DNA from: Planctomycetales bacterium
GTDB lineage: Bacteria > Planctomycetota > Planctomycetia > Isosphaerales > Isosphaeraceae
Reading direction: 5' to 3'
Assembly: GCA_027451455.1 (NCBI GenBank)
Contig: DAIDJI010000001.1
Coordinates: forward strand, 1-29,674
DNA length: 29,674 nucleotides
The notes under the pieces were generated by a model. It was not told the DNA's origin and did not search any database. It saw only the letters and a list, made by a program, of their open reading frames with translations. Below, piece after piece: positions 12,331-29,306 of the stretch; the stretch's first letter is position 1, and the number at the start of each line of letters is the position of its first letter. Position numbers and translations under genes: made by a program.

Positions 12331-14166
12331 TCAGGATCCGGCGGCTGGAGGTGATATAATGCGGATTCGATGATCTGTGTGGATCGAATGTGCCGACTTC
12401 CGCCAGACTTTGGGCATGTGACAGCCGACACAGCCCTTGACCGGCTCGACCGGGCAGGTCGTCTTGCCGGCCCCGTGACAGCTCAGGCACTGGGCCTCGT
12501 AGGGCCTGGACTCTCTCTCGAGGCGCTTGTGCGGGTCGTGGCAGGTGACGCAATGGAGCCGGCCATCGCTTGCCGAGTAGCATCGGCTCTTGAGGAGCCG
12601 GGCCCCCTGGAACCGGAACCACGCCGGGTCGTCCGGGTCGCCGACGGCCCCCCGGGGCTCGGTCAGCCCGTGGCACTCGCCGCAGCTCCGATTGATCGCA
12701 TCCGCGGAGAATCGCCCGGGGTTGACGACCGCCAGGTCCGACAGCCCTGCTTCGACGGCCAGCACGTGATGTCCGCCCGGCCCATGGCACCGCTCGCATC
12801 CGATCGCCGGATCGGCCGACTCAGGGCCGACCTGGTCCTCGATGGCGCGGAAGTTTGTCGTGTGGCAGGCCAGGCACCGCCTCTCGCCGTCGCCGGGATC
12901 CATCGGCTCCCCGATGAATTGGTCGGGATGGGCCGGTCGGGACGCCAGCCCGGTGGAGAGATCCCATCCCGATCCCCGGGGCGAGTGGTAGTAGGACATC
13001 CGGAGCATCCGGGCGCCCCCCCGCTCGGCCGAGCCGGTGAGGGTCACAAAATGATCAGGCGATCCGAATGCGTACCGGGCGATGGCCCGGAAGACCTGGT
13101 TGCCGACCTCGGTCTCGACACGGATGGCGTCACCGCGGCGCTCGAACCGGTGGCGGACCGCCGGATCGCCCGGGTCGGAGACCGGTCGATCGGGCACGGG
13201 GAACGACCGGGCCTCGCGCGCCAGGGCGAACGTCGTGCTGTGCCGGCTGGTGAGCGATGACTGGTATTCGGAGGGATGACAGTCGGCGCACCGCGACGCA
13301 CCGAGGTACGGGGCCGGCTCGGGCTCAAGGGGATGGTCACGGCGATACGACCCGGCCATCCGGAGTGTCTCGGCGGCCTGAGTCCACGCCTTCTCCTGGA
13401 GGAAGCATCGGCTGAGTAGCCAGGCGGACTCGGGATCCGCCTCCACGGCGGGCATGGTTCCAAGGGCGAGCCTCGCCTCAGTGGGCTTCCCGGCCTGGAG
13501 CCAGGAGCGCACCCAGAGCATCCGAATCGGCTGCAGCGGGAGAGGCGCAGCGGACTTGCCTTCCGGGTCGAGTTCGAAGGCGCGCTGGAACGCACTCGCT
13601 GCGCCCTCGGGATCGTGCCGGGCTGAGCGGAACGTCCCGAGCATCAGCAGCGCCCGGGCCTCCCGGCCCGGAACGTGCGACAACCTCTCGGCCATCGCTT
13701 CGGCCGAGACCAGTCGGTCCTTCCGGTAGTTGACTTGTGCCAGCTCCTCCAGGATCTCCAGCCGATCGGGATCGGCAGCCTGTGCCGCCTCCAGCGACAC
13801 CAGCGCAAGGTCATCCTGCCCGGTGCGGGCCAGAGCCCGACCGAGAAGGAAGTGGTCCTCGGCGGTCATCCATCCTGGCTCGATCCGGGCATAGGCCGCG
13901 ATCGCCGCCCGATCCCGGTCCTGCCGGGCAACCGACCTGGCGATCAGTCGAGCCGCCTCTCGGTCGTCGGGGACTTCCTTCAATCGCCGGCGTGCCAGCC
14001 GGACGGACCAGTCCCAATCGCCCTGATCATACGCACGGAGCGCTTCGGTGCCCGGCCCGGCGCCGAGGCCGGCCCACCACCCAAGCCCGGCCGCCGCTCC
14101 GAGCAGAGCCGCCAGGCCCGCCACGATCCAGCCGAAATGATATCGGAGCTCCGGAAAGCTCGCCAT
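12331..14166 (-). CDS. Membrane-anchored TPR protein fused to a multiheme cytochrome c (7 CxxCH)
   Basis: N-terminal TM, TPR helices, then CADCH, CLACH, CERCH, CGECH, CVTCH, CLSCH and CVGCH. Start moved to ATG 14166 (the ORF-track start would overlap the upstream gene). Confidence 0.9.
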   Translation of the reverse strand: MASFPELRYHFGWIVAGLAALLGAAAGLGWWAGLGAGPGTEALRAYDQGDWDWSVRLARRRLKEVPDDREAARLIARSVARQDRDRAAIAAYARIEPGWMTAEDHFLLGRALARTGQDDLALVSLEAAQAADPDRLEILEELAQVNYRKDRLVSAEAMAERLSHVPGREARALLMLGTFRSARHDPEGAASAFQRAFELDPEGKSAAPLPLQPIRMLWVRSWLQAGKPTEARLALGTMPAVEADPESAWLLSRCFLQEKAWTQAAETLRMAGSYRRDHPLEPEPAPYLGASRCADCHPSEYQSSLTSRHSTTFALAREARSFPVPDRPVSDPGDPAVRHRFERRGDAIRVETEVGNQVFRAIARYAFGSPDHFVTLTGSAERGGARMLRMSYYHSPRGSGWDLSTGLASRPAHPDQFIGEPMDPGDGERRCLACHTTNFRAIEDQVGPESADPAIGCERCHGPGGHHVLAVEAGLSDLAVVNPGRFSADAINRSCGECHGLTEPRGAVGDPDDPAWFRFQGARLLKSRCYSASDGRLHCVTCHDPHKRLERESRPYEAQCLSCHGAGKTTCPVEPVKGCVGCHMPKVWRKSAHSIHTDHRIRIISPPAAGS

Positions 14167-14234
14167 GACACCATCCACCCTTCGCTGGGGATACTGATGG
14201 AGACCCGACGGGATCCGATCGTAGTCCGTCGGGC

Positions 14235-15071
14235 TTATCCCGGTCGGCGAGGGGTCGGACCGGACTGCCTCCGCTCGGCGGCCAGGCCGCTCGAGAGGGC
14301 TGTGCTGACCGCCACGCAGGCGTAGGAGAGGCCGCGTGCTGCCCCCTGAGAAGCGATCGGTTCGAAGGTACGCATCAGCGGGAAGGCCAGGGAGTTGCTC
14401 GCCTCCAGGGCCATCGTTCCGATGAGAGCTCCAAGACATCCGCCGAGGATCGCCGGCCCGAGCCTGGATCGATCTTCCATCCCAAGGCCCAGGGCCAGCC
14501 CGGAAGCGGCTCCCACGCTTCCGAAGATGGCCGCATGGGTCAAGAACAGAACGAGCAGGCCCGAATCGGGGTCCTGGTACCGATAGAAGAGCGGGACGGC
14601 GATCCAGGACACCGCCGCTCCCGTCGCTGCGCCGACGGCACCCCCCGCAACCGCCCCGATGATCCGGCTCCGGGTCGAACTGGCCGCGCGGTTACCGATC
14701 CACCCGAGGCTTGCGGCCAGGACGAACCCCAGCCAGGCATAGCTCGCCGCCGCCCTCTTTCGATCGGCAGCGCCCCGAGCTAGGGCCTGAATCCTCGAAT
14801 CCATGGCCTCCTTCTGGTAACCCCCGAGCGTCTTGTAATTCGCCGGATAGACCGCCTCGTCTTCGAGGTGGAAGGTCGGGTAGATCGCCTCGCCTCCCGC
14901 CCAGGCGAGGAGAGCGGCGACAAGACCGCCTCCCAGTAACGGGAGCCAGATCGGGACGCGGGCCGCCCCCCGCGTGGCCGCCGCCGTCTTTGTGCCCATA
15001 TCCTCGGTCTGCGCTCCAGGGCTCTCCGTCGGAGGTGATGACGGGTTTGATTGAGATGGTTCAGCATTCAT
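14235..15071 (-). CDS. Polytopic Gly/Ala-rich membrane protein of unknown function
   Basis: Strong AAGGAGG RBS, about 6 hydrophobic segments. Lies 68 bp upstream of the TPR-cytochrome gene on the same strand. Confidence 0.8.
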   Translation of the reverse strand: MNAEPSQSNPSSPPTESPGAQTEDMGTKTAAATRGAARVPIWLPLLGGGLVAALLAWAGGEAIYPTFHLEDEAVYPANYKTLGGYQKEAMDSRIQALARGAADRKRAAASYAWLGFVLAASLGWIGNRAASSTRSRIIGAVAGGAVGAATGAAVSWIAVPLFYRYQDPDSGLLVLFLTHAAIFGSVGAASGLALGLGMEDRSRLGPAILGGCLGALIGTMALEASNSLAFPLMRTFEPIASQGAARGLSYACVAVSTALSSGLAAERRQSGPTPRRPG

Positions 15072-15484
15072 AGTGGCCCTCCTTTCGTCACGTCGATCGT
15101 CTGCCTCCTCGACGACCTGGAGAGTCCACGCCAGGCCCCTGGGACGACCCCAAATCCAAACTCACGCAGACCCCATCCGCTCAGTTGCAGGTTTCCCGGT
15201 GGATCGAGTGCGCCTCGACACGGAACCTCGACTCGATTCGTCTCCCATCAATGGACGGAGTGAGGGCGCGGGGCCGGGACCACGGCCGAACCCTTTGCCC
15301 GTTGGCAACCTGCGATCAACAGGACAAATCTAATTCACCATCGCCGAGATCCGCAACATGTCAGAGACGATCCCGAACCGGGGCCCATGAGGTCGGGTCT
15401 CGGGAAGCAACGGAGACTGTTAAGAAATATGTGCCATACCAGGCCAACCATTAAGTTATTAGGACAAGGAATTTGTTTGCTTCA

Positions 15485-15502
15485 CTATCAGGGGCCTGAT
15501 AG
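15485..15502. promoter_or_regulatory. Perfect inverted repeat CTATCAGG-GG-CCTGATAG, candidate transcription factor operator
   Basis: 8-bp perfect arms in the AT-rich, roughly 600-bp divergent intergenic region. Confidence 0.45.
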
Positions 15503-15678
15503 GATTCCGGAGCTTGCGATCGTTTAACGGGCCAGAACACATCGCGGCCCATCTTTCTCATACGACGCTTTGCGATTCGGTTGTCCGCTCGGACGGTCTG
15601 CCAGGTTCCATTCCGGTGACAGGCGACGGCCTGTCGACCGCATGGCAAGTAGCACTCATGATGAGGATCATTTCATCC

Positions 15679-15903
15679 ATGAAAGCGAGAGCCGCATCTC
15701 ATCGGGTGGCGTTCGTGTTCGCGTGTGTCCTGGGCGGGTCTTTCTTCGGCTGCAATCAGCCAGACAGTCCAGCGCCGGTGAAGCCAGCCGAGGCCCCGCC
15801 CGCGCCCTCCGATGCGGCGGTCAAGCCGCACGAGACGACAGAGGGCAAGGCCTACGGCAGTAACGACATGTACAAGAAGATGATGCGGAAGCCGGGTAGC
15901 TGA
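15679..15903 (+). CDS. Small putative lipoprotein (74 aa)
   Basis: Basic N-terminus, hydrophobic stretch and lipobox-like FFG-C, then a Pro/Ala-rich linker. Start may be 15658-15679. Confidence 0.65.
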   Translation: MKARAASHRVAFVFACVLGGSFFGCNQPDSPAPVKPAEAPPAPSDAAVKPHETTEGKAYGSNDMYKKMMRKPGS

Positions 15904-15987
15904 AACGACTGGCATCATCACACCCGAGGTCCCTCAGTATCTCCCCGCGAAGGGGCCGTTACGAATAAGGGCGTTGATATCGGGCCA

Positions 15988-16092
15988 GCGAGAGAGGGCG
16001 GGACGCAACCGTTCATCTCCTCGCCGCGGAGTTTTGCTCGCCCGGGTTCGGACCCCGGAGGATGGGAAGAGGCAACGGTTCATCTCATTCTC
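15988..16092 (+). repeat. Tandem direct repeat GCAAC(C/G)GTTCATCTC (16005-16019, 16072-16086), each copy embedded in a potential hairpin
   Basis: 14/15 identity, 67-bp period, complementary purine-rich upstream flanks. Confidence 0.55.
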
Positions 16093-16117
16093 GTAACTTG
16101 TCTCGAGGGACCTTTTG

Positions 16118-17281
16118 ATGAAGTACCTCAAGCGTCTGCGCAGACGGTTGCGTCTTGGCTTCACCCTGATCGAGCTGCTCGTCGTGATCGCCATCATCGC
16201 CGTACTGATTGCGCTGCTGCTGCCCGCGGTTCAGGCGGCCCGCGAGGCCGCACGCCGGTCTCAGTGCACCAACAACATGAAGCAGCTCGGCTTGGCTCTG
16301 GCGAACTATGAGTCGGCCACGAACGGGCTGCCCATGTGCTACCAGAACAACGCCCCGATCAGTAGCTTCGCTTACGGTTACATCGCGGGCGGATCCTCGG
16401 GGTGGGGCGCTTGCAGCCCGCAGTCCCTCATGCTGCCGTTCCTGGAGCAAGGCCCGACCTACAACTCCATCAACTGGAGTATCTGCACGACCGCGAACCT
16501 GGAGAATGGCATCCAGAAGACGGCCCTCGGCCAGCGGATCAATGCGTTCCTCTGCCCTTCCTCGCCCCTTCCGATCGGGGGTGACGGTTACTACATGAAT
16601 AACCAGTATCCCGGCAATAACTACTGGGGTTCGGTCGGCCCGTGCGTCGTTCCCTGGGCCTCCGCGAATCCGCCGGGGGTTTTCCAGATCGTGGGCAAGG
16701 GGATGTCGGGAGCGATCGGTTTCCGCGACATCACCGACGGAACCAGCAACACGATCGCCTTCGGTGAGTGGAAGATGGGCGACTTCAATTGCACGAAGCT
16801 CTCGCTCCAGGATGCGATCAATATTCGCCAGAATACCTTCCCCAATATGGGCGGTGGGGTCACCACCAAGCCGTTTGGGAGCTGGAACAATTCGACGGCC
16901 AGCAGCATGCCGTCGGCAGGCTTGCAGACGTTCATGGCCTTCCTGAATGCCTGCCAGGCGAAAGCTCCGAGTACGCTCGGTAAGTGGGAGGATAACAAGG
17001 GAATGCTCGGTCGGGAATGGGCCACGGGGATGTTCGGCCACACGCTGGGCACGACCCTCCTGCCGCCGAACCCGGCCTATTACAATTGCAACATGGAGTC
17101 GTGGGGCGGCGACTTCGACGCGCCCGGCATGTACAACCTGAGCAGCTACCATCCGGGCGGCGCCAACGTGGCCTTCGTCGACGGCCACGTCCAGTTCGTC
17201 AAGTCGAGCACTCAGATGAACATCATGTGGTATCTGGGAACGAAGGCCAGCGGCGATGTAATCTCGTCCGGCTCGTATTGA
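16118..17281 (+). CDS. DUF1559 domain protein with type IV prepilin-type N-terminal cleavage/methylation signal
   Basis: [10 protein letters not shown]|[46 protein letters not shown] and C-terminal [14 protein letters not shown] (H-X9-DG). GAGGGA RBS. Confidence 0.96.
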
Positions 17282-17419: not shown

Positions 17420-18616
17420 ATGTCGCGACGGTTACCCCGGCCGCGTCGGGTATGGGCCATCCCGATTCTCGTGATGGTCGCGATGGTCTCGGTCGTGCTC
17501 CTCGCCGACGGATACCTCGGCGAGGATGTGCCCCTTCCCTGGCCGTCCCGGGCACGCCGGCGCGCCGAGGCTGAGGCGCTGGCGAACGGCCACGCCTACC
17601 TGGAAGAGGGACGTTTCCGGCGCGCGATTCTGACGGTCTCGCGGATCCGGGAAGGGAGTTCGTCGGAGGCCGAGGCCCTGACGATCCGAGGGGTGGCCGA
17701 GGCCAGCCTCGAGGAGGTCGCCCCGGCCCGGCGTGACCTGGAGCGGGCCTGGTCCCTGTGCCCCAATGCCGCGGCGGGCAGGGTCCTGGCGGCGATCTAC
17801 CTGAGTGCCAACGAGACCGATCGCGGCCTACAGGTACTCCAGGCAACCGCCCGAATTGACCCCCGCGATTTCCGGCCGTGGTACGCCATGGGCGAGCTGG
17901 TCTATCTACCCCTCCGTCGCTACGAGGAGGCGATCGAGGCCTTCCGGCGGGCACTTGTCCGCCGGCACGACCACCGGGAATCGCGGCTCGGCCTGATCGA
18001 GGCCCTGGTCCGGTTCCACAAGTCGCGCGAGGCCGCGCCGATCATCGAGGGCCTCCTGCGTGAGCACCCCGACGATCCCCGATTGTTGACACTCGCCGCC
18101 GAGGCGGCGCTGGACTCGGGCCGCGACCGGGACGCTGCTGGCCTCGTCGAGCGATCGCTGGCGATGGAGCCCGACCACCGCGAGGCGCTGGTTCTCCAGG
18201 CGCGGATCCGCCTGAAAGAGGGGCACCCGAAGGAGGCATTGTCGTCGGCGGAGCGTGCCTGCAAGATAAACCCCAACGACCCGGCCATCCTCGGCCTGGT
18301 CGGCTCGATCCAGGGAGTCCTCGGCCTGAAGGGGGAATCCGAGCGAACGCTGGTCCGCCGGAAAGAGGTTGAGCGGCGCAACCAGGAGATGGAGGAGCTA
18401 TCAAGCCAGATCCTCCAACGGCCCGACGATCTGGAACTCCGATGCCGGTTGGGACGGATGGCCAGCGAGGCGGGGATGCGAAGTCTCGCCATCCAGAGCT
18501 ATCAGGCGGCTCTGTCGCGGGCGCCAGAATGCGAACCGGCCCGTCGGGGCCTGATCGATCTGGGCGTGTCCCCGCCGCAGAGCCTGCGCGGGCAAGGCGG
18601 CAAGCCTGCCGGATAA
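17420..18616 (+). CDS. Membrane-anchored tetratricopeptide repeat protein (paralog of 23323-24573)
   Basis: N-terminal TM (VWAIPILVMVAMVSVVLLA) and many TPR units (DPRDFRPWYAMGE, HPDDPRLLTLAA, NPNDPAILGLVG). GAGG RBS before ATG 17420. Confidence 0.88.
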   Translation: MSRRLPRPRRVWAIPILVMVAMVSVVLLADGYLGEDVPLPWPSRARRRAEAEALANGHAYLEEGRFRRAILTVSRIREGSSSEAEALTIRGVAEASLEEVAPARRDLERAWSLCPNAAAGRVLAAIYLSANETDRGLQVLQATARIDPRDFRPWYAMGELVYLPLRRYEEAIEAFRRALVRRHDHRESRLGLIEALVRFHKSREAAPIIEGLLREHPDDPRLLTLAAEAALDSGRDRDAAGLVERSLAMEPDHREALVLQARIRLKEGHPKEALSSAERACKINPNDPAILGLVGSIQGVLGLKGESERTLVRRKEVERRNQEMEELSSQILQRPDDLELRCRLGRMASEAGMRSLAIQSYQAALSRAPECEPARRGLIDLGVSPPQSLRGQGGKPAG

Positions 18617-18627: not shown

Positions 18628-20592
18628 TCAGGGAGGGAAGTGATCCGGGGTCAGGGCACCATTCGAGAGGCGATCCAGTTCGGCTCCAAGTCGCAGGAGG
18701 ACGGGCTGCAAGGTGGGTTCGCTGGCCAGGTTCTGCCGCTCTCCCGGATCCTCGCGAATGCGATACAGTTCCTCGCGGGCCGCTTTCCCACTCCGAATGT
18801 AGGTCCAATCGCCCTCGGTTAGCGCGGCCGAAGGCCATCGGGTCTTCCGCAGCCATTCCGACGGGTTCTCGTTGGAGAGGCGGTTGGGAATGACCTCGGA
18901 GAGCACTGGTGCAGGTGCGGGGCCGTTGCCAATCCGCGCCAGCGAGGTGCCGGGGATTGGAGAGGTGGCTCCAAGGCTCGCGAGGTCGACGATCGTCGCA
19001 GCGAGGTCACGCAGGCTGACTGGCTCGTTCACGACTCTCGGCGAGAAATGAGGGACCGGTGGGACGATCAGCAGGGGAACATGAAGCTCGGTCCGGTAAA
19101 GGCTCCTTCCGTGGAAGAACACGCCGGGATGCTCTCCGAAGCTCTCGCCGTGGTCGGAGGTGATGATGATCCAGGTCTGCTCAAGGACGCCGCGGCGATC
19201 GAGCTGGTCGATCAGCCAGCCGAGCTGCTCGTCGAGATCGGCGACACAATCATCGTAGCGATCGCGAAACGGAGGGACGAGACGATCGGAGGGAGCGCCT
19301 AGGAACTCGCCGAGCCACTGGGCGAGGAGGTCTTCCTCGTGCTGGTTCCGCGGCCGGGCCCCAAACCGGTGGATGCCGGCCGGTCGTAGCTCATAGGGAC
19401 TGTGCGCGTCGAAGAGGTTCAGGAAGCCGAAGAACGGCCGGTTCGGGTCCCGGTCGTGGTCCAGCCACTCCAGGAACTCGTGATGCACGACCTCCGCCCG
19501 TTTCTGATCGTACAGAAACTTCTGCCAGAACGGCCGCACGGCCGCCCCAATTCCGTCAAAAACTGTAAATTTCTCTGCGTAATACTGAATGGCCAGGGCT
19601 CCGGTTGTGATCCGGTCGACCAGGACCGAGGCCCGTAGGTCAGCGAGGCGGAGGAAAGGGTGGTCGCGGTAGGTAGTGAATCCGCGCGCTAGCCCTGAGT
19701 CCCATCCGCAGTATTGCAGGTTACCCACGAAGCCGGCGGTGGCGTAGCCTCGGGATCGGAGGTACTCGGCGACGGTCCGATGGGCCCCGTCGAGCGGCGA
19801 CATCCAGCCGGCTGAGAGTTCGTGAGGCCATCGCCCTGTGAACATGCTTGCGTGCGACAGTAGCGTCCACGACGAGGCCGCCCGAGCCTCGCGGAACCAG
19901 ATACTGCGCCTCGCCAGCTCGGCGAGGGTCCGGCCAGTGGGTCGTTGATAGCCGTAAAGGTTCAAATGGTCGGCGCCGACCGTATCCAGGACGATGAGCA
20001 GGACGTTGGGCGAGCCGGGCGAGGGCAGAGGGCTCGTCCATTCCCGGCGGGCTTCAAGCCAGTCGAGCGATGCGAGGGAGGCCCCCAGGGCAAGCACAGC
20101 AGCGGCCAGGAGCGGCAGGCCGACCCGGACCAACCGTCGGACGGCGGCGGGCCGTCGCGAGAGGACCGGGGTTAGCCGCCAGGCGATTCCTGTTGTCAAC
20201 AAGAGCCCGGCGCTCGCATAAATCCCGGGGAAGCCGGCCAGGAGCGGAGGGAGCAGAGCCAGCCCACCGACTGCTCGGAAGGTCCATTCCTGCCCCCAAC
20301 GTCGCCCCAGCCGTGCCACGATCCCCAGGACAGCCGCCAGCCCAACGAGGATCACCAGATCGATCAGTGGGACCAGCCAGACGAAATGGCGAGTCGTCCA
20401 GTAAAATCGGTTCGTGGCACCGTACTGCTTGCGGAGGATGGTCACGCCAACCTCCAGCAGGCCGGATGCGAGCCCGCACCAGACGGCCGCGAGAAGCAGC
20501 GCACCGGCGCCGGGACGACGGGCGGCGGCATCCCGATCCGGCCTCGGTTCGATCGTTCCGGGCTCGGTGGAAACAGCCGACGAACCGATCAT
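18628..20592 (-). CDS. Membrane-bound sulfatase-like hydrolase/transferase (alkaline phosphatase superfamily), copy 1
   Basis: About 5 N-terminal TMs, then NVLLIVLDTV, SWTLLSHASMFTGRWP, FLNLFDAHSPY and TSDHGE. Start is approximate (ATG 20592). Confidence 0.88.
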   Translation of the reverse strand: MIGSSAVSTEPGTIEPRPDRDAAARRPGAGALLLAAVWCGLASGLLEVGVTILRKQYGATNRFYWTTRHFVWLVPLIDLVILVGLAAVLGIVARLGRRWGQEWTFRAVGGLALLPPLLAGFPGIYASAGLLLTTGIAWRLTPVLSRRPAAVRRLVRVGLPLLAAAVLALGASLASLDWLEARREWTSPLPSPGSPNVLLIVLDTVGADHLNLYGYQRPTGRTLAELARRSIWFREARAASSWTLLSHASMFTGRWPHELSAGWMSPLDGAHRTVAEYLRSRGYATAGFVGNLQYCGWDSGLARGFTTYRDHPFLRLADLRASVLVDRITTGALAIQYYAEKFTVFDGIGAAVRPFWQKFLYDQKRAEVVHHEFLEWLDHDRDPNRPFFGFLNLFDAHSPYELRPAGIHRFGARPRNQHEEDLLAQWLGEFLGAPSDRLVPPFRDRYDDCVADLDEQLGWLIDQLDRRGVLEQTWIIITSDHGESFGEHPGVFFHGRSLYRTELHVPLLIVPPVPHFSPRVVNEPVSLRDLAATIVDLASLGATSPIPGTSLARIGNGPAPAPVLSEVIPNRLSNENPSEWLRKTRWPSAALTEGDWTYIRSGKAAREELYRIREDPGERQNLASEPTLQPVLLRLGAELDRLSNGALTPDHFPP

Positions 20593-20724: not shown

Positions 20725-21963
20725 ATGGCGATCAATGAGCGCGCGAGGGGGCTGGTCTGGGTCGGCTCGCTGATCGCGATCGTTGGGGCAGGGGTCTGGA
20801 TCGGCCGGAACTGGTGGGTCACCCGGCAATACCGATTTGCGATGGAATCGATCCGGGAGGAGCTTGAGGGCGATCATCTGGCCCTGGCCGCGCGCGACCT
20901 GCGCGCGCTTCTCCCGTGGAGCCCCGACCCGGACCGGGTCCTCTACCTGCTCGGGTACTGCGAGCGGTCGCGAGGAAACCACGAGGCGGCGGCTGAGGCC
21001 TGGGCACGGGTCGCTCCGACGTCCCGATTCGCGATCGCGGCGATCGTCGGCCGGATGGAGATGGAGGTCGAGCGCGGGCGACTCGCCGATGGCGAGCGCC
21101 TCATCCGCCGGGTCGTCTCTGATCCCAGGATCGATCCGTTCGAGCTGGCGATGGAGTTCGCTCCCGTCTACGTGAAGGAGGGCCGAGACGAGGAGGCCAG
21201 GGAACTGATCGAGGCAGCGTGGACAGCGCTGGACCGAGCGGGCCGGGGCGCCACGGAACCGGCAATCCTTCTGCTCCGCCTTCACATCGAGATCGGAGCG
21301 AAACCTGACCCCGTGGAGGCCACCCGTTCGCTCCTCGATCGATCGGGCCGGCTGGCCCCCGACGACGATCGTGTCTGGCTGGGAAAGGCCAACCTGGCGC
21401 TCCGCCTCAACGAGCTGGACGAGGCGGGCCGATGGCTCGACGCCTGCCTTCGCCGAGCCCCCGACGACCGAAGCGTCTGGCGGGCCCGGCTGGACTGGGC
21501 CATCGCCTCAAATCGAACGGAGGAGGCCATTGAGGCGATTCGCCATCTGCCGGAGGACCAGGAGCCGTCGGCTCGTGTCGCCGGTCGGGCGGCCTGGCTG
21601 GCCGGGAGGCGAGGGGATCGCGAGGCCGAGCATCGGGCGCTGTCCGTCGTTCTGATCGAGAATCCTGCCGATCGGTCCGCGCGTGCCCGCCTGATCGCGA
21701 TGGCGATTCAGGATGGACAGCCGAACCTCGCCGAGAAGCTCCGCAGCGAGGGGGCGCGAATCCAGGAGCTTGAGGAGCGCTATTGGGAACGGTATCGGCG
21801 GGCCCAGCCCAGCCGGGACGCCGAGGCGATGGCCCGCCTGGCGGCGCAGCTCGGTCGTCGGTTCGAGGCCCGTGGCCTCTTCACCCTGGCGATCGCCATG
21901 GACCCGGGCCGCAGGGACCTCCGCACCGATCTGGCCGCGATCGACGGCCGCCCCCCTGAATAG
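20725..21963 (+). CDS. Membrane-anchored TPR protein
   Basis: GGAGG RBS, N-terminal TM (LVWVGSLIAIVGAGVWIG) and TPR units (APDDDRVWLGKANLA, APDDRSVWRARLDWA). Confidence 0.88.
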   Translation: MAINERARGLVWVGSLIAIVGAGVWIGRNWWVTRQYRFAMESIREELEGDHLALAARDLRALLPWSPDPDRVLYLLGYCERSRGNHEAAAEAWARVAPTSRFAIAAIVGRMEMEVERGRLADGERLIRRVVSDPRIDPFELAMEFAPVYVKEGRDEEARELIEAAWTALDRAGRGATEPAILLLRLHIEIGAKPDPVEATRSLLDRSGRLAPDDDRVWLGKANLALRLNELDEAGRWLDACLRRAPDDRSVWRARLDWAIASNRTEEAIEAIRHLPEDQEPSARVAGRAAWLAGRRGDREAEHRALSVVLIENPADRSARARLIAMAIQDGQPNLAEKLRSEGARIQELEERYWERYRRAQPSRDAEAMARLAAQLGRRFEARGLFTLAIAMDPGRRDLRTDLAAIDGRPPE

Positions 21964-21970: not shown

Positions 21971-23269
21971 TCAGGGTGAGGGGGCGTCGAGCGACTTCAG
22001 GTTCGGCGTCGGCCCATTGAGGGGAAGCATCGGCTCGCCCTCGCGACGAACTCGGATCCAGTGGTCGGTGAACAGAATATGCTGCCCCGCGTCAACGCGG
22101 GGCATGTGGCACGCGATGCAGTCGCCTCGGGGCTCGACCGGGCAGACCGCTCCGCGCCTGGTCGGCTTTTCGGCCGGCGTTCCATGACAGGAAATGCAGA
22201 TCGCCCGATACGAGGCGAGATCGGCGGAGGCCCGCGCGTGCGGGTCGTGGCAACTCAGGCAACTGAAGGCCCCCTCGCTCTCGCGGTAACATCGGGACTG
22301 GAGGAGGCCCACGGGCTGGAATCGGACGAGGTGCGGGTCGTCAGGCCGGATCTCTTCGGGGCGGGCCCGCGAGGGATGCCGGTGACACGTCCCGCAGAGC
22401 AGGATCAGCGACTCGGTGGTGAAGCGCTCCGGGCCGAAGGGGAGCTGCATCTTGGCATCCTGGCCGCTTCGGGCAGCCTCCACGTGCGCCCGGCCCGGGC
22501 CGTGGCAGCGCTCGCAGGAGACGTTGGGGATCAATGTCTCCTCGTCGATCGCCAGGTCGTCGCGGGCGGAGAGCTGGGTCGAATGGCAGCCGAAGCACTT
22601 GAGCGCCGAGTCGGGCGGCATCACGCGGCCGAGGGGACCCAGGCCGGGCGGGTGCGGACGCTCGTCCTGCCCGGCGGTCAGCCCTAGAGCATTCGACCCG
22701 GTATAGTACGAGATACGGTGCTCCAGGATCGTTGGGGCCGCCGGGTCGACCACGCTCACGAAGGTCACTCCGTGATGGCCGGACCCAAAAGCATACTCGA
22801 CGATGCATTCCTCGACCTTGTTCCGCTCCTCTCGGCGGATGAAGAGCTCGTCGTCGCGGCGGCGATAGGCCCAGCGAACCCCGGGCTGTTCGGGATCGTC
22901 AATCGACTGGCCGTCGAGCTGGCGCGCGATCACCCGGTGTCGGGGCGAGCTGAGGGTCCGGGCGTGCCCAGATCGGGTGTACATCGCGTACTCGCCCGGG
23001 TGGCACTCGGCGCAGGCGAGCGGCCCGACGTAGGGATCCGAGGGATACCGCCCCGAGGGCGGAAACGGCCGGTCCCTGCCGATCAGGTGGACGCCGCGGA
23101 TCGAGGCGACCGGCCCGGTCCGGGACGGGCCGAGGCCCCCCCAGACTGCGGCGCCCGCGATCGCCGCGAACGAGAGGGTCAGGACCACCCGGGCCTGCCG
23201 CCCAGGGGCCGTCCTGCCCTGCGAGGTGCGGCGGCCGCTGCTCGGTTCTCCGGCGGACGTGTTCGGCAT
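21971..23269 (-). CDS. Membrane-anchored multiheme cytochrome c (7 CxxCH), paralog of the C-terminal part of 12331-14166
   Basis: TM VVLTLSFAAIAGAAVWGG, then CAECH, CFGCH, CERCH, CGTCH, CLSCH, CISCH and CIACH. GAGGA RBS. Confidence 0.92.
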   Translation of the reverse strand: MPNTSAGEPSSGRRTSQGRTAPGRQARVVLTLSFAAIAGAAVWGGLGPSRTGPVASIRGVHLIGRDRPFPPSGRYPSDPYVGPLACAECHPGEYAMYTRSGHARTLSSPRHRVIARQLDGQSIDDPEQPGVRWAYRRRDDELFIRREERNKVEECIVEYAFGSGHHGVTFVSVVDPAAPTILEHRISYYTGSNALGLTAGQDERPHPPGLGPLGRVMPPDSALKCFGCHSTQLSARDDLAIDEETLIPNVSCERCHGPGRAHVEAARSGQDAKMQLPFGPERFTTESLILLCGTCHRHPSRARPEEIRPDDPHLVRFQPVGLLQSRCYRESEGAFSCLSCHDPHARASADLASYRAICISCHGTPAEKPTRRGAVCPVEPRGDCIACHMPRVDAGQHILFTDHWIRVRREGEPMLPLNGPTPNLKSLDAPSP

Positions 23270-23322
23270 GGTGGATCCTCAAAAGGTCTGCGGGGCCCTC
23301 CCGGGCCCGCGGGCCAGCCCCC

Positions 23323-24573
23323 TCAGCGGGCCGGGTGCAGGGCCGGGCGGGGGATGCGACTGGTGAGATCCGGGCGGGCCGCAGGTCCAGCATCGCGCCC
23401 GAGTTCCGGGTGCGCGGCCCTCAAGGCGGCCAGGCTCTCACGCGCCGCTCGGTGGTCGGGGTCGAGGGCCAGGCAGGCCTCAAAGCATCGGCTGGCCAGC
23501 AGCGCCGAGCCGGCCTCGGCGGCAAGCTGCCCCATCTTCCACGGGATCTCCGGGTCGTCGGGATGCGCCTCGAGCTGCTCGCTCAGCTCGGACATCTGCC
23601 GGCGGCGCTCCTGGGCCCGTCTCGCCCGGGCCAGAGCCTCTCGTGCGCGGTCGGTCTCCCCCAGGCGCGACTCGATCATCCCCAGAAGTTGTAGCGCGGC
23701 GGGGTCGTCTGTGCCCGCCGACGCGGCAAGGGCCGCGTCGGCCCGGGCCGCCTGCCAATCCGAGCGCGTCACCCGGCAGCGAGCCCGGGCCAGCAGGGCC
23801 TCGATGTTCCGCGGGGCCCGCTCGATCGCCCGGTCGGCAAGAGAGATCGCCTCATCAATCCGTTTTGTATCGAAGGCCGCCTGCGCGGCCAGACCCAGCA
23901 CGACCGGGTCGTCCGGAGCCACCCTGAGTGCCCGGTTGACCCAGGGACCGGCGCGATCCGACTGCCCGTTGTTGACCAGAAGGGCGACGAGGGACCTCAG
24001 AACCTCGCGGTCCTCAGGCCTGACTTCGAGGGCTTTCCGATAGGCTCGTTCCGCGCCGGCGCGATCGTCGAGGTCGTCCAGAGCACGGCCGAGTATTCGC
24101 CAGACACCGAACTCTCGAGGACGGAGCCGGGCGGCCATCTCGAGTACCTCGGACCCGCGCCGGGCGTTCCCGAGATCGAGGTTCAACTCCCCAAGGGTCA
24201 CCGCTACCTCGAACTGATCCGGCCGGAGGGTCAGGGCACGTTCCAGGGCCAGCCGGGCGGCGCGGTAATGTCCCATCTCGATCAGGGCCAGCCCGGCGAC
24301 GGCCATGGCCTCGCCCGCCTCCGGCGTGGCCTCACGCACCGGATCGACCGCCTGGAGCGCCAGCTCGGGCCGTCCCGAGCGAAGGTAACTGCGCCCGCGC
24401 GCCGATGCCGCCTGGACCGGGCTCAATCGTGCAGGACGCGGCCCTCGCCCCCACCACTCGCCGACGAGAATCAGCACCGGCAAAGCCGTCGCCACGGCCA
24501 GGAGCCGACGGGCCCGCCGCGAGGACCGCGACATCCTCCCATCGGGCCGAGTCTCGACGTTCGTGGGGTTCAT
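23323..24573 (-). CDS. Membrane-anchored TPR protein (paralog of 17420-18616)
   Basis: TM LLAVATALPVLILVGEWW and TPR units (RPDQFEVAVTLG, RPEDREVLRSL, APDDPVVLGLAA). Start 24573 (alternative 24534). Confidence 0.88.
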   Translation of the reverse strand: MNPTNVETRPDGRMSRSSRRARRLLAVATALPVLILVGEWWGRGPRPARLSPVQAASARGRSYLRSGRPELALQAVDPVREATPEAGEAMAVAGLALIEMGHYRAARLALERALTLRPDQFEVAVTLGELNLDLGNARRGSEVLEMAARLRPREFGVWRILGRALDDLDDRAGAERAYRKALEVRPEDREVLRSLVALLVNNGQSDRAGPWVNRALRVAPDDPVVLGLAAQAAFDTKRIDEAISLADRAIERAPRNIEALLARARCRVTRSDWQAARADAALAASAGTDDPAALQLLGMIESRLGETDRAREALARARRAQERRRQMSELSEQLEAHPDDPEIPWKMGQLAAEAGSALLASRCFEACLALDPDHRAARESLAALRAAHPELGRDAGPAARPDLTSRIPRPALHPAR

Positions 24574-24716
24574 GAAGTGAGATCCCCATCCGGAGGAGTC
24601 GCCCGGGACTCCGTACCCAGCCGGAACACCCAAAAGTGGCAGCCCAGCAACCGCAACACTTCGGTCACACTCGCCCCAGATGATACGATGGAACGAGCCC
24701 TGGAACCAGACGTGGA

Positions 24717-26657
24717 TCAGGGCTCCTGGAAGAGCTGAACGAGCTTCCGGCGCAGGTCTTCCAGGAGCGCTTCGGCCATCGATGAGGCCCCGACGTTGCG
24801 TCGCTCGTCCGGGTCGGAATCCAGGAAGTACAGTTCCTCACGCCGGTTCGCCAGGCGGATGTAATGCATCCCGGAGTCGACCACCGATGACATCGGCCCG
24901 ATCGCGACCGGCTCTCGACCGCCGTTGACCAGGTAGAGCGGCTTCCCGGTCTGGATCAGCAGAGGCTCGGAGCGTGGACGGATCGACGATGACCCGCCGC
25001 CTTGGTTCCAGAACCGAGAGAGCGGCCGTCCCCGCAGGAGGGTATCGGGCTCGAGTCCGAGCAGATCCACGATCGTCGCCGGGATGTCGCGCAGGCTCAA
25101 AGACTCGGCCACTCTCCGGCCCGCCGGTAAATCCTTGCCGACGATCACCAGAGGGACCTGAACCAGCTCACGATACAGGCTACAGCCGTGGAAGTAGAGC
25201 CCGTGATCGCCCAGATGCTCACCGTGATCGGCTGTGACGATCACCAGTGTCTCGTCAAGCACGCCTCGCCGCTCGAGCTCTCCAAGAAGCTCCCCCAGTC
25301 GGCGATCGAGGGCTGCAATGGCATCGTCGTAGACATCGGTGGCCAGTTGAACGTCACGAGGTGATAGCTTCTCCCGGGTCAGTGAGGTCCAGTTCGCAAG
25401 GGTCTTGAGGTCGCTCTCGGAGGTCGGGCGCATCCCGAAGCCCACGACCGAATCCTCGGGAACCTCGTAGGGCGTGTGGGCGTCGTTGAGGTTCAGAAAG
25501 GCGAAGAAAGGTCGGCGCCGGCCACGGCGCCCGTCGAACCAGTCGAGAAAAGCTCTATTCACATCGTGACTGGTTTTGAGATGCTCATTGGATCGGAGCG
25601 AGAGCCCGAACGAGCGTCCGAAGGTGTTTTCCAGGAGAGTGTTCAGAGCCACGACCCGCTCTCGCAGAATTAGCCGACGGCCCAAAGCCATTTGCCGAAT
25701 GAAGATATCCCGAAAATTGATGGGAAAATCCTCGAAGCGCGCAAAGCCTCGGGCGAGCCCGGTTTCGCGCCCGCAATAGTCGAGATTGGCGACGAAGCCC
25801 GCCGTCTCGAAGCCGAGGTCGGCGAGGCGTTCGGCGAGCGTGGGTACGTCCGATCGCATCGGCGAGTTCCAGTCGACCCCCAACTGGTGTGGCCATCTTC
25901 CAGTAAACATACTTGCATGAGATGGAAGGGTCCACGATGAGGTTGCAAAGGCCCGGTCGCACCGAACCCCGCGCCCTGCCAGCTTCTCCAGGTTGGGCGT
26001 CGTCCGGCGCGGGTAGCCGTGCAGGCTGGTATGGTCGCCGCGAACGGTGTCCCAGACGATCAGCAGAACGTTCCGCTTGGTGGTCGGCGTCGGTAACGTG
26101 GCCAGAGCGCGATATTCCGACCAGGCCCGACCGCCGACCGTCATCGCCAGGCTCGCCAGCAAGACGCCGACCAGGACCACTGTCCCGCGCCGGACCAGGA
26201 CCAGGAAGGCCCCGGCGTGCGATCGGATCCACCGCGAAAACTGGACGGCAATGCCGCCACAGAGAAGGGGAACCGCCCAGATCTCCAGCGGGAGTTGGGC
26301 CGCGACGTCCAGCAGGGCGAAGAAAACGAGGGCTCCGACCACGATCTCAAGCCGGACGCCCCCGCGCCGGAGTTGGGCAAACAGGGCCAGGATCGCGGCC
26401 GGGAGGAGGGTCAAGAGCGCGACGCCCACCGGGATCATCCAGACGAAATCCTGACCTCGGTGATGGAATCCCTCCTTCATCACGCGGACCCTGGCGATCA
26501 GGAAACCGAGATCGAGGAAACCGGCGGCCAGTCCGATCCCGACCGCCATCCCGAGAATGGCTGCCGGCGTGATCCCGACGGATGACCGGCCTTCCCGGGC
26601 CTCATGGGCATTCGATCGGAGCGTCTTCGCCGCCGCGATCGCCTGGGGTAAATCCAT
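24717..26657 (-). CDS. Membrane-bound sulfatase-like hydrolase/transferase (alkaline phosphatase superfamily), copy 2
   Basis: About 5 N-terminal TMs, then NVLLIVWDTV, SWTLPSHASMFTGRWP, FLNLNDAHTPY and TADHGE. Confidence 0.9.
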   Translation of the reverse strand: MDLPQAIAAAKTLRSNAHEAREGRSSVGITPAAILGMAVGIGLAAGFLDLGFLIARVRVMKEGFHHRGQDFVWMIPVGVALLTLLPAAILALFAQLRRGGVRLEIVVGALVFFALLDVAAQLPLEIWAVPLLCGGIAVQFSRWIRSHAGAFLVLVRRGTVVLVGVLLASLAMTVGGRAWSEYRALATLPTPTTKRNVLLIVWDTVRGDHTSLHGYPRRTTPNLEKLAGRGVRCDRAFATSSWTLPSHASMFTGRWPHQLGVDWNSPMRSDVPTLAERLADLGFETAGFVANLDYCGRETGLARGFARFEDFPINFRDIFIRQMALGRRLILRERVVALNTLLENTFGRSFGLSLRSNEHLKTSHDVNRAFLDWFDGRRGRRRPFFAFLNLNDAHTPYEVPEDSVVGFGMRPTSESDLKTLANWTSLTREKLSPRDVQLATDVYDDAIAALDRRLGELLGELERRGVLDETLVIVTADHGEHLGDHGLYFHGCSLYRELVQVPLVIVGKDLPAGRRVAESLSLRDIPATIVDLLGLEPDTLLRGRPLSRFWNQGGGSSSIRPRSEPLLIQTGKPLYLVNGGREPVAIGPMSSVVDSGMHYIRLANRREELYFLDSDPDERRNVGASSMAEALLEDLRRKLVQLFQEP

Positions 26658-26939
26658 CGAACAGGGCCCTTCGAACGAAGAGTAGAGCGGCCTGGGAAGA
26701 CGTACCGGGATCGGGTGCCTCCCTCGCCTTCAAAAGTGTGAGTCGACGTTCAGTACACTGAACCGGGGCCGCGATTGCAAGACGCGGATCCGACCGGCTG
26801 GAAAGTCCGGGATTGCACCGCAGGCGTTCGGTGGGAAAATAGAATGATCGGGCTCGCCGGCCTGCGACAACGCGCCGGTTCCCCCACCTCGGCCAATCCG
26901 ACGTCGTCGGCTCGGTCCTTCTTTTGGGTGGTGAGATCC

Positions 26940-29306
26940 ATGCGTCTGAACATGATGCGCATCTTCATATTTGTTTGCGTTCTCGCACTGATCGCGATGG
27001 CGAGCCTCGGGGCGGTCGCCGCGCTCACCGGCCTTGGCCCGAGGCAGTTGCTCAAACTGACGTCCGCCGGAAGTCCTTCTCCTCGTCCAGAACTTGCACC
27101 GGCCCGGCGCACGGGGGAGCGGATGCTTCCGCTCTATTCCGACGTCTGGATCGACGATAGCGGGATCTCCCTCGCCGTCCAGTTCGAGGAGCCCCAGACC
27201 GATCCGACGTCGCTCGCCGAGGTGGCCGCAGCGCGCCAGGGTCGGGCGGCGAGGGGAATCGCCCGGTACTCAAGGCGGCTCGCGATGATCGGGCGGCCGA
27301 GGTCTGACTCCGAGGCCCTCCTGGCCGCGGAGCACCAGCTCTGGATCGGTCAGCTTTACATGTTTGATGGCCGATTCGAGGAGGCCGCGGCCTGCTTCCG
27401 ATCCGTCCGCGACCTCCATCCGGCAAAAAATCCCCTCTTCGAGGCCAACATCGAGGCGATTCTGGGCGTCGCGGCGATGCGGCGGGGCGAACTGGATAAC
27501 TGCATCGCCTGCTGCACTGACGCCAGTTGCATCTTCCCCCTGGCTAGCGCCGCCGTACATCGGCGGACCAGCGGATCGCGCGAGGCGATTCAGCATTTCA
27601 CCGCCTACCTGGATAAACGGCCTGAGGACATCGGTATTCGATGGCTTTTGAACCTCGCCTACATGACTTTGGGCGAATACCCTGAGAAGGTTCCGGCGGC
27701 CCATCTCATCTCTCTTGACCCGTTCCGGTCGCGGATAGACGTCGGCCGGTTCCCAAACGTCGCCGCAAGGGTGGGGCTCGACGCGATGGGCGAGAATAAC
27801 GCTGGCGGTTGCATCGTCGACGACATCGACGGAGACGGCCTGCTCGACGTCTTCACGTCCAACATCGACCCCGGGCGCGGGCCCTCGCTCTTGCTCAATC
27901 GGGGCAACGGAACGTTTCAGGAGCCGGAGGGGCCGACCGGACTGGCCGACCAGGTCGGGGCCGCCAATGCCACCCATGCCGATTTCGACAACGACGGTGA
28001 TCTGGATATCCTCCTGCTCCGGGGCGGTTGGGAGCGGCCCCTCCGGCCCTCCCTGCTCCGCAACCGGGGCAACGGCCGCTTCGACGACGTCACTGCCGAG
28101 GCGGGCCTGATCGCTCCGATCGCCACCCAGTCGGGCGCCTGGGGCGACTACAACAACGACGGATTCGTCGATCTGTATCTCTGCGGCGAGTTCGATCCTG
28201 GCCGCCCTGACCCCCGGAACCTCTGCCGCCTCTACCGAAACAACGGGGATGGGACGTTCACCGACGTCGCCGCCGAGGCCGGGGTTCTCAACCAGTTCTG
28301 GGCCAAGGGTGCGGCCTGGGGCGACTACGACAACGACGGCGATCCCGACCTTTACGTCTCCAATGATGCCGCCCCGAACCGCCTCTACCGGAACAACGGG
28401 GATGGGACGTTCACCGACGTCGCCCCGGCGCTGGGGGTCACCGAGCCGGCCTCCAGCTTTGCCTGCTGGTGGTGGGATTACGACAACGATGGCCGACTCG
28501 ACCTCTTCGTCTGCGACTTCGGCAACCGGCTCTCCGACGTGATTCGAAGCCATCTCGGCCAGCCGACGCCCGGCGAGCGGCCCCGCCTCTTCCACAACGA
28601 GGGCCCTGGCGGCTTCCGCGATGTCACGAAGGAGGCCGGGCTCGATCGCGTCCTGGTCTGCATGGGATCGAACTTCGGCGACATCGATAACGACGGGTAT
28701 CTCGACATGTACCTTGGCACCGGCCGGGCAGAGTATCGTTACCTGGTCCCCAACATCCTCTTCAAGAACGTGGGCGGACGACGGTTCGAGGACGTGACAA
28801 CGTCGTCAGGCACCGGGCATCTCCAGAAGGGACATGGAATTTCTTTCGCTGACTGGGACCGCGACGGCGACCAGGATATCTTCCTGGAAGCCGGCGGAGC
28901 CACCCCCGGCGACCGCGCCCACAACGCTCTCTTCCTCAACCCGGGCCACGGGAACCACTGGCTGACCGTCCGCCTCGTAGGGACCCGAACCAACCGCGCC
29001 GCGATCGGCGCCCGGCTTCGGGTCGACGTTCCCATATCTGGCGGCGGGGTGGAATCTCGATATCGCGAGGTGACCAGCGGGTCAAGCTATGGCGGCAATC
29101 CCTTCCGTCTGACCGTTGGGTTAGGTCAGGCGGCCAGCATCACCACACTCGAAGTGAGTTGGCCCACGAGCCGAACGCATCAGGTCCTCCGCAATCTCCC
29201 GATCGATCGGGAAATTGAGATCGTCGAGGGACGCGATGGATTTCGGGTCCGAGGCGAACGACCGACCCCGCCTCCCGAAATGGGCTCGCCGGTCCCGCGT
29301 GAATGA
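26940..29306 (+). CDS. CRTAC1-family protein: signal/TM, TPR-like helices, FG-GAP-like repeats and C-terminal ASPIC/UnbV domain
   Basis: Repeats DDIDGDGLLD, DFDNDGDLD, DYNNDGFVD, DYDNDGDPD, DYDNDGRLD, DIDNDGYLD and DWDRDGDQD. C-terminus HWLTVRLVGTRTNRAAIGARL...SGSSYGG...GLG. Start moved to ATG 26940. Confidence 0.92.
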   Translation: MRLNMMRIFIFVCVLALIAMASLGAVAALTGLGPRQLLKLTSAGSPSPRPELAPARRTGERMLPLYSDVWIDDSGISLAVQFEEPQTDPTSLAEVAAARQGRAARGIARYSRRLAMIGRPRSDSEALLAAEHQLWIGQLYMFDGRFEEAAACFRSVRDLHPAKNPLFEANIEAILGVAAMRRGELDNCIACCTDASCIFPLASAAVHRRTSGSREAIQHFTAYLDKRPEDIGIRWLLNLAYMTLGEYPEKVPAAHLISLDPFRSRIDVGRFPNVAARVGLDAMGENNAGGCIVDDIDGDGLLDVFTSNIDPGRGPSLLLNRGNGTFQEPEGPTGLADQVGAANATHADFDNDGDLDILLLRGGWERPLRPSLLRNRGNGRFDDVTAEAGLIAPIATQSGAWGDYNNDGFVDLYLCGEFDPGRPDPRNLCRLYRNNGDGTFTDVAAEAGVLNQFWAKGAAWGDYDNDGDPDLYVSNDAAPNRLYRNNGDGTFTDVAPALGVTEPASSFACWWWDYDNDGRLDLFVCDFGNRLSDVIRSHLGQPTPGERPRLFHNEGPGGFRDVTKEAGLDRVLVCMGSNFGDIDNDGYLDMYLGTGRAEYRYLVPNILFKNVGGRRFEDVTTSSGTGHLQKGHGISFADWDRDGDQDIFLEAGGATPGDRAHNALFLNPGHGNHWLTVRLVGTRTNRAAIGARLRVDVPISGGGVESRYREVTSGSSYGGNPFRLTVGLGQAASITTLEVSWPTSRTHQVLRNLPIDREIEIVEGRDGFRVRGERPTPPPEMGSPVPRE
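28226..28424 (+). repeat. Intragenic 46-bp direct repeat (28226-28271 and 28379-28424), 45/46 identical
   Basis: Both copies encode RLYRNNGDGTFTDVA; period is 153 bp (51 aa). Confidence 0.9.

Follow-up and report, generated by a model that had tools for sequence, protein, structure and literature searches.

A run of 11 genes at positions 12331-29306 of the window, the whole 29,674-nt stretch analyzed here and one entire contig (DAIDJI010000001.1) of a fragmented Isosphaeraceae metagenome-assembled genome (MAG; GCA_027451455.1, 6.49 Mb in 1426 contigs), encodes only exported or membrane-bound proteins, with no cytoplasmic gene interspersed (Table 1). We read this run as one copy of a linked but modular envelope gene set, a kit that is amplified in Isosphaeraceae and forms a periplasm-facing redox and ester-processing system for an extracellular substrate, and we put the chance that this reading is right at about even. 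That the families are functionally linked is well supported, because they are enriched around one another, keep a conserved order, share same-strand operons and include fusions of tetratricopeptide repeat (TPR) domains with cytochromes; that they form one machine, as an interpretation made earlier from the letters alone (the sequence-only reading) had proposed, is not supported, because the parts are separable between genomes. To our knowledge no function is known for the bacterial CRTAC1/ASPIC-UnbV proteins, for DUF1559 or for the present family of heptahaem cytochromes, and tying these three families together by statistics, synteny and operon joints makes of them one testable system and gives DUF1559, a huge family, a first context that is open to testing. 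Two points are new, namely the quantification of the DUF1559 link against a control family and a Thr-type membrane branch of the sulfatase fold.

Gene families were assigned with Pfam and NCBIfam, and motifs and hydrophobic segments were counted by script, which found at least one N-terminal hydrophobic segment or several transmembrane segments in every protein of the cluster. The unbroken run of 11 exported or membrane-bound gene products described by the sequence-only reading was confirmed in its families and signals, and its inventory also stood: two proteins with seven CxxCH motifs each (cyt2 and cytTPR), four TPR proteins (tprA, tprB, tprC and, fused to a cytochrome, cytTPR), two sulfatase-like Thr-type enzymes (sulfA and sulfB), and one each of a CRTAC1-family protein, a DUF1559 protein, a lipoprotein and a membrane protein.

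The source genome holds about 10-11 cytochrome, 6 membrane-enzyme, 6 tprB-type, 18 CRTAC1 and 76 DUF1559 loci. Permutation within this genome, with the window contig excluded, gave significant co-occurrence for tprA/C with cytochrome, tprB with CRTAC1, tprB with DUF1559 and CRTAC1 with DUF1559; for cytochrome with CRTAC1 and cytochrome with enzyme it returned no co-occurrences and had no power, the contigs having a median length of a few kb. Because the source-genome contigs are too short, the remaining pairs were counted in G004, a congener of 16 Mb with long contigs (20 cytochrome, 39 UnbV_ASPIC, 22 membrane-type enzyme and about 105 DUF1559 genes), where partners within 10 kb were tallied by hand and evaluated by binomial tails. 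A DUF1559 gene lay near 15 of the 20 cytochrome genes (2.7 expected, tail 7e-10), a membrane enzyme near 10 (0.6 expected, tail 1e-10) and CRTAC1 near 9 (1.0 expected, tail 3e-7; a 9-fold enrichment of adjacency), and 18 of the 22 membrane enzymes had DUF1559 as a neighbor (3.1 expected, tail 2e-12), all of these tails overstating significance, which has to be held against our reading, because paralogues and related genomes are non-independent. The effect sizes, 5- to 16-fold over the pairs, stand regardless of this. Counted by region, a DUF1559 gene was present in 11 of 15 cytochrome regions, and at least five separate regions of G004 carried cytochrome, enzyme and CRTAC1 together. The control family DUF1501, which is likewise abundant, exported and of the alkaline-phosphatase superfamily, had DUF1559 within 10 kb for 5 of its 40 best genes (12.5%), which is the level of chance. 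Co-occurrence beyond genome-wide abundance, the test that the sequence-only reading had set itself in advance, was thus borne out. Chance juxtaposition of families abundant in planctomycetes, an idea to which the copy numbers of DUF1559 (about 76-105), CRTAC1 (18-39) and the likewise abundant sulfatase-fold genes lend some appeal, was tested and rejected on enrichment, control and conservation: adjacency exceeds expectation by the above factors with the control family at expectation, orthologous clusters are conserved at 50-63% identity and the core is kept across phyla, which leaves this explanation a next to negligible probability.

Comparison of the orthologous clusters revealed conserved order at several distances. 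The near relative at locus L013 has the same gene order at 91-97% identity, a 2-Mb contig of another MAG (L033) carries all families in mirror order at about 63% identity (cytochrome), and locus L028 of G004 retains the whole set in rearranged form; 19 further fetched regions join the same families in many permutations. Recurrent joints among the further regions are the divergent enzyme/tprB pair, with six cases (L115, L121 twice, L126, L128 and L133), and tprB followed by CRTAC1, with eight; the tprC-cyt2 adjacency is retained in L028, L033 and L035. Co-directional operons of the types DUF1559-tprB-CRTAC1-enzyme (L120) and DUF1559-tprB-CRTAC1 (L130) were found, and in the Pirellulales and Kolteria, namely Stieleria marina (L110), Kolteria novifilia (L051) and Pirellulaceae (L053, L057), a lipoprotein gene stands between DUF1559 and cytochrome on the same strand.

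A pattern scan using one genome per species returned at least 575 relatives of the cytochrome, which beyond Planctomycetota occur in Acidobacteriota, Armatimonadota, Rhodothermales and Calditrichia. The acidobacterial locus L083 reads outer-membrane barrel (PF25183), TPR, CRTAC1, TPR, CRTAC1, cytochrome; in this operon stop codons overlap the start codons that follow, and a second cytochrome is convergent to it. L069, L072, L077, L078 and L084 have the same arrangement, and the more distant loci L052, L059 and L074 keep barrel, TPR and cytochrome. The core of TPR protein, CRTAC1 and heptahaem cytochrome is ancient, older than the phylum, and DUF1559 with its lipoprotein (Planctomycetota) and the Thr-type enzyme (almost only Isosphaeraceae) are lineage-specific additions. 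The proposal that the system is assembled around a pilin-like subunit is not supported as stated, since what is shared across phyla is cytochrome, TPR and CRTAC1 and not DUF1559.

Several observations weigh against our reading. The acidobacterial loci have neither DUF1559 nor the membrane enzyme. Among Isosphaeraceae the enzyme occurs without a cytochrome match in G009, G015 and G016 (61-74% complete), and cytochromes occur without the enzyme in G022 (98% complete) and G010; a full-length query found the enzyme in 20 of 24 Isosphaeraceae genomes, in none of 16 genomes of other families in the class and, among 200 planctomycete genomes, in one further family only, all of which speaks for separable parts. 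Gene order and orientation vary between copies. Distances among G004 cytochromes and among their neighboring DUF1559 paralogues were not correlated (Mantel r = -0.11, P = 0.74, 9 pairs), which speaks against simple duplication as fixed cytochrome-DUF1559 pairs. The TPR part of cytTPR resembles tprC just at the generic TPR level (E 2e-4), and the N-terminus of CRTAC1 (long form) has no detectable homology to tprB; a 'Rosetta stone' argument from domain fusion would accordingly hold at the generic TPR level only. Finally, the window has no gene for a quinol-oxidizing partner, for an outer-membrane component or for a motor of pili or secretion. Separable parts, differing order and orientation and a mirror-tree test without co-duplication signal would also be expected if two or three independent modules (cytochrome-TPR-CRTAC1, DUF1559-lipoprotein and enzyme-tprB) shared a neighborhood or a regulator and had no common complex or substrate, an alternative that we consider possible, if rather doubtful. 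It accounts poorly for the strength of all pairwise enrichments with the DUF1501 control at chance, for the tight co-directional operons that join members of different modules (L120, L130, L110), and for the G004 regions in which cytochrome, enzyme and CRTAC1 stand together.

The two cytochromes of the window qualify as multihaem c-type proteins, being exported and having exactly seven CxxCH motifs and one N-terminal hydrophobic helix each; CxxCK, the NrfA-type catalytic motif, is absent from both. Across 46 homologues the seven CxxCH motifs are invariant or nearly so, and few candidate distal ligands outside them are conserved (H262 and H344 invariant, H403 and M389 nearly so), for which reason one or more haems may be five-coordinate (open) or unusually ligated. 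Two additional Cys residues, C327 and C376, are conserved in the family. Selenocysteine was ruled out, since in-frame TGA flags were terminal or upstream stops every time and none aligned to a conserved Cys. By sequence (Pfam and sequence comparison), only a c554-like haem-packing stretch is recognizable in cyt2. Foldseek analysis of the AlphaFold2 (AF2) model of cyt2 (pLDDT 82) returned OcwA (E 6.5e-6), MccA (9e-5), the undecahaem S-layer cytochrome of Carboxydothermus, 6QVM (1e-4), and c554 (0.26) with TM-scores of just 0.3-0.43, suggesting a likely kinship at class level to the c554/OcwA/MccA/NrfA fold class without an assignable specific family. The cluster cytochrome shares with its best structural match, OcwA of Thermincola potens (6I5B), the character of an exported multihaem c-type protein. 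Unlike OcwA, MccA, 6QVM, NrfA and c554, it has seven haems (vs 9, 8, 11, 5 and 4, respectively; identity 13-16%, TM-score about 0.4), is N-terminally anchored and usually TPR-fused, and always stands in a TPR, CRTAC1 or DUF1559 context. Isosphaeraceal genomes carry 10-30 cytochrome genes each, and the TPR-fused form predominates, because most copies sit in open frames of 600-850 aa.

Multihaem, membrane-anchored cytochromes whose closest folds are those of OcwA and 6QVM, both cell-surface reductases, might suggest an extracellular electron-transfer conduit respiring minerals or humic matter. The habitat would suit this explanation: the public runs that contain at least half of the sampled words of 21971-26657 are mine-drainage and mine-tailings metagenomes from three studies, a match on sampled words that makes the habitat a lead only. 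Against a conduit, the window has no porin-cytochrome pair, outer-membrane cytochrome or quinol dehydrogenase; it falls outside the porin-cytochrome (MtrABC/Pcc) type, having neither a barrel gene nor a decahaem cytochrome, and the DmsE and GSU2203 decahaem models reached 30-37 bits on it against cut-offs of 192-325. Moreover, tens of diverged paralogues in each genome are easier to reconcile with diverse substrates than with a single respiratory chain, and in Acidobacteriota the core has genes for glycoside hydrolases and TonB-type barrels as neighbors. A respiratory conduit is therefore improbable in our judgment.

All four TPR proteins were confirmed by Pfam, each with one N-terminal transmembrane segment, and a weak fifth TPR-like stretch lies in the CRTAC1 protein. 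The CcmH/CycH TPR model and NrfG give weak matches, which raise the idea that the TPR proteins are dedicated apocytochrome chaperones (CcmI/NrfG-like) and the other genes bystanders. We hold this very unlikely, since these matches are no better than those to many unrelated TPR families and the curated cut-off is reached by tprA and tprC only, which pass generic TPR models too; in most cases TPR domain and cytochrome form one polypeptide, and genes of the tprB type, found elsewhere ahead of CRTAC1 genes and in divergent pairs with the membrane enzyme, do not pair with cytochromes. A complex predicted for CRTAC1 residues 250-788 and cyt2 residues 70-432 scored 0.00, which weighs neither for nor against binding.

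Both sulfA and sulfB match PF00884 (1e-38) and have four to five N-terminal transmembrane helices. At the site where sulfatases have C-x-P-x-R they read W-T-L-[LP]-S-H; all 23 membrane-type members conform to W-T-[LFY]-x-S-H and do not fit the formylglycine motif C/S-x-P/A-x-R, whereas the corresponding site is C-x-[PAS]-x-R in 21 ordinary sulfatases taken from their own genomes and the fetched loci. Residues D203, T243, S246, H247, D477 and H478 are invariant in the membrane-type enzyme, and the metal-binding Asp and His positions of the sulfatase fold are kept. The AF2 model of sulfB (pLDDT 82) has about five helices at the N-terminus (31-186); its catalytic domain is closest, by sequence and fold search, to phosphonate monoester hydrolases (PMH), SpAS1, and choline and carrageenan sulfatases. 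Unlike the S1 sulfatases and PMH that provide these best matches (2W8S, 4UPI, choline sulfatase), the cluster enzymes have a T-x-x-S-H motif and a fused five-helix membrane domain. In layout, a polytopic N-terminal domain followed by a predicted periplasmic domain with an invariant Thr, they resemble EptA/MCR-1, LtaS and PptA. Unlike in EptA/MCR-1 and LtaS, the catalytic domain is of the S1-sulfatase/PMH branch and has a large C-terminal subdomain; EptA, MCR and LtaS chains were not among the top 50 fold matches of sulfB, and the NCBIfam EptA/MCR models gave 20-45 bits against cut-offs of 500-1250. Model and matches together point to an enzyme of EptA/LtaS/PptA architecture that is nevertheless a member of the S1/PMH branch. 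The sulfatase fold thus has, as the cluster shows, a branch that exchanged formylglycine for Thr, with His at the site of the motif Arg, and acquired a membrane domain. Given the missing formylglycine and the established chemistry of the alkaline-phosphatase superfamily, the enzyme most likely performs phosphoryl-type rather than sulfuryl-type chemistry.

Neisseria PptA is a pilin-decorating phospho-form transferase, and its gene, too, has a pilin-like gene as a neighbor. The Thr-type enzyme might by analogy transfer a lipid-derived phospho-head group onto the neighboring DUF1559 protein, as its tight linkage to DUF1559 (18/22 within 10 kb) and its polytopic N-terminus with a periplasmic alkaline-phosphatase-superfamily domain and invariant Thr would allow. 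Such pilin decoration nonetheless appears unlikely: the catalytic domain is closest to PMH and S1 sulfatases and not to EptA, MCR or LtaS, the EptA models remain far below their cut-offs, and most DUF1559 genes, including all outside Isosphaeraceae, have no such enzyme nearby.

Relatives of the sulfatase fold with a Thr or Ser nucleophile (WTLPAH, WSVPGH, YTLSSH) were also seen beyond Isosphaeraceae (L135-L139); most match just from about residue 110-190 onward and may lack the membrane domain and be soluble. With such Thr/Ser relatives in other planctomycete families, the branch without formylglycine extends beyond the membrane-fused form. Some enzyme copies in G004 and G018 contain in-frame stops or are broken into frame-shifted pieces (L133 950-2881; L020 7104-8951 and 10722-12620; L126 6009-7944), which reflects either paralogue decay or errors in long-read assembly.

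The CRTAC1 protein matches FG-GAP_3 (PF13517, six matches) and UnbV_ASPIC (PF07593), both above cut-off, and its propeller has seven invariant DxDxDG-type calcium motifs. Over about 480 residues it aligns with human CRTAC1 (9ETN; E 2.5e-15), and it shares with the vertebrate protein the FG-GAP calcium-type propeller and UnbV_ASPIC; unlike the latter, it adds a bacterial signal or anchor and a TPR-like, Cys-rich N-terminus. A region of G004 (contig C3, 76-116 kb; L132/L133) holds about six CRTAC1 genes with a membrane Thr-type enzyme, tprB-type genes and DUF1559 genes, and has no cytochrome, so that the propeller-TPR-enzyme part can stand without one.

The DUF1559 protein scores above cut-off with PF07596 (2e-48), PF07963 (N_methyl, 7e-7) and TIGR04294 (H-X9-DG, 1e-10), and its match to solved pilins is confined to the N-terminal helix. 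No assembly ATPase, platform protein, secretin or prepilin peptidase was found among the genes of the window, L033 or L034. In the clusters that match that of the window (L013, L033, L034, L028 and L120), DUF1559 likewise has a small lipoprotein gene beside it. In the window, the lipoprotein signal of the sequence-only reading held in part: a small probable lipoprotein is present, and its putative lipobox, F-F-G-C, is non-canonical. In S. marina, a cultured strain with a complete genome, L110 7724-13412 presents the system in small form, as a compact same-strand operon of DUF1559, a 139-aa lipoprotein, a heptahaem cytochrome, a 399-aa polytopic protein whose start overlaps the cytochrome stop, and a 417-aa membrane protein. 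The orphan membrane protein at 14235-15071 belongs to no family in Pfam, NCBIfam or Atlas; homologues lie beside cytochrome, sulfatase-like or DUF1559 genes in L020, L027, L034, L040, L127, L130 and on contig C5 of its own genome. A b-type cytochrome or quinol site was ruled out for this protein, which has one conserved His only.

Returning to the reading of a linked but modular, periplasm-facing system, we infer its physical assembly, direction of electron flow, substrate and DUF1559 role as follows. All parts would face the periplasm, where the TPR anchors would hold cytochrome and propeller on the outer side of the cytoplasmic membrane and the haem chain would pass electrons to or from a substrate bound by the propeller. 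The Thr-type enzyme would act on that substrate, or else on an acceptor in the envelope, and transfer or hydrolyze an ester by phosphoryl-type chemistry. DUF1559 with the lipoprotein would serve substrate capture or delivery, a role that a TonB-type outer-membrane barrel would take in Acidobacteriota. The many diverged paralogues, as in polysaccharide-utilization loci, argue for many substrates rather than core respiration. A further-reaching version, put forward tentatively and on balance unlikely, makes the redox core a substrate-processing station plugged into phylum-specific uptake gear (TonB-type barrel vs DUF1559 plus lipoprotein), with DUF1559 as the capture or delivery arm of many stations of this kind and the Thr enzyme as a new phospho-ester-transferring accessory.

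The resemblance to SusC/TonB polysaccharide-utilization loci lies in the many diverged copies and in the position of the acidobacterial core directly downstream of the large PF25183 barrel and adjoining GH20 and GH3 genes. Unlike such loci, the window lacks SusC/SusD and glycoside hydrolases, and the constant parts are redox and scaffold proteins, not carbohydrate-active enzymes. The TfcP-PilY1-minor pilin set of Myxococcus xanthus (PMC8833165) similarly co-encodes a c-type cytochrome, a calcium-binding propeller and pilin-like proteins that act in the periplasm; TfcP, however, is small and non-canonical rather than heptahaem, and PilY1 is not of the CRTAC1 family. This likeness is one of composition only, the acidobacterial core having no pilin-like gene.

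The literature searched (DUF1559, UnbV, CRTAC1, ASPIC-multihaem-FG-GAP) yielded no description of this gene set, in agreement with the sequence-only reading, which knew of no functional account of the combination. DUF1559 has at least 68 paralogues in model planctomycetes, where it is the largest paralogue group without assigned function, and two members are essential in Planctopirus (PMC10632474). Of ASPIC/UnbV, the literature searched mentions just the expansion of the family in Solibacter. One paper independently reports a CRTAC1-family gene with multihaem HZS-like genes on either side (PMC12758564), the sole literature context found for bacterial members, and a preprint on multihaem proteins in peat does not treat the cytochrome family of the cluster. 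The present gene set suggests extensive multihaem redox chemistry in the periplasm, beyond classical respiration, in both aerobic heterotrophic planctomycetes and soil acidobacteria.

The genes of the cluster are listed in Table 1. Two open reading frames had been read too long by the sequence-only reading, although the genes themselves are present: the frame of cytTPR is open to 14439 and its likelier start is an ATG at 14166, and that of sulfA is open to 21285 with 20592 as the likelier start. The CRTAC1 gene probably starts at 26940.

Table 1. The eleven genes of the cluster, with positions in the window.
Gene or product	Position	Strand	Features
cytTPR, TPR-heptahaem cytochrome fusion	12331..14166	-	N-terminal transmembrane anchor, TPR region, then 7 CxxCH
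Glycine-rich membrane protein	14235..15071	-	4-5 transmembrane segments; no Pfam/NCBIfam family
Small Pro-rich probable lipoprotein, about 74 aa	15679..15903	+	alternative starts 15658, 15661
DUF1559 / H-X9-DG prepilin-like protein	16118..17281	+	class III signal G|FTLIELLVV
tprA, membrane-anchored TPR protein	17420..18616	+	Pfam TPR, one N-terminal transmembrane segment
sulfA, polytopic membrane enzyme, S1-sulfatase/PMH-like fold	18628..20592	-	PF00884; W-T-L-L-S-H
tprB, membrane-anchored TPR protein	20725..21963	+	Pfam TPR, one N-terminal transmembrane segment
cyt2, heptahaem c-type cytochrome, N-terminal anchor	21971..23269	-	7 CxxCH
tprC, membrane-anchored TPR protein	23323..24573	-	Pfam TPR, one N-terminal transmembrane segment
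sulfB, polytopic membrane enzyme, S1-sulfatase/PMH-like fold	24717..26657	-	PF00884; W-T-L-P-S-H
CRTAC1-family protein	26940..29306	+	signal/anchor, TPR-like Cys-rich N-terminus, seven-blade FG-GAP propeller, UnbV_ASPIC

By strand and spacing, sulfB-tprC-cyt2 forms one same-strand unit (gaps of 143 and 53 nt), lipoprotein-DUF1559-tprA another with the lipoprotein gene first, and the membrane protein gene lies upstream of cytTPR in a third (gap of 68 nt); sulfA and tprB diverge from a 132-nt spacer, and CRTAC1 and sulfB are also divergently transcribed. Three pairs are internal paralogues: sulfA and sulfB (38% identical), tprA and tprC (34%), and cyt2 and the C-terminal 350 aa of cytTPR (37%). 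Promoter and terminator scans of the cluster gave results no better than those for shuffled sequence, and the public runs listed for the cluster or for cyt2 alone included no RNA dataset. The G+C content is 0.59-0.61 in 15000-17000 (lipoprotein, DUF1559) and in 25000-26000 (part of sulfB), and 0.67-0.70 elsewhere in the cluster.

On the right, the contig stops 368 nt past CRTAC1, but CRTAC1 is also the last gene of the orthologous cluster of L033, which has the same gene at either end as the cluster of the window. To the left (1-12.3 kb) lie ordinary cytoplasmic or housekeeping genes, encoding a solute symporter, a STAS protein, a SIS etherase-like protein, a UbiE methyltransferase, a BadF-type kinase, a histidine kinase, a HEAT protein, a nitroreductase, a HAD hydrolase and an FkbM methyltransferase, which makes the cluster boundary at 12.3 kb real. 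Within this flank the MurQ/GKRP-type SIS etherase-like gene (2237-3181) lies near that for the BadF/BadG-type ATPase or sugar kinase (4042-5007), and the two may serve amino-sugar or muropeptide recycling, unrelated to the cluster.

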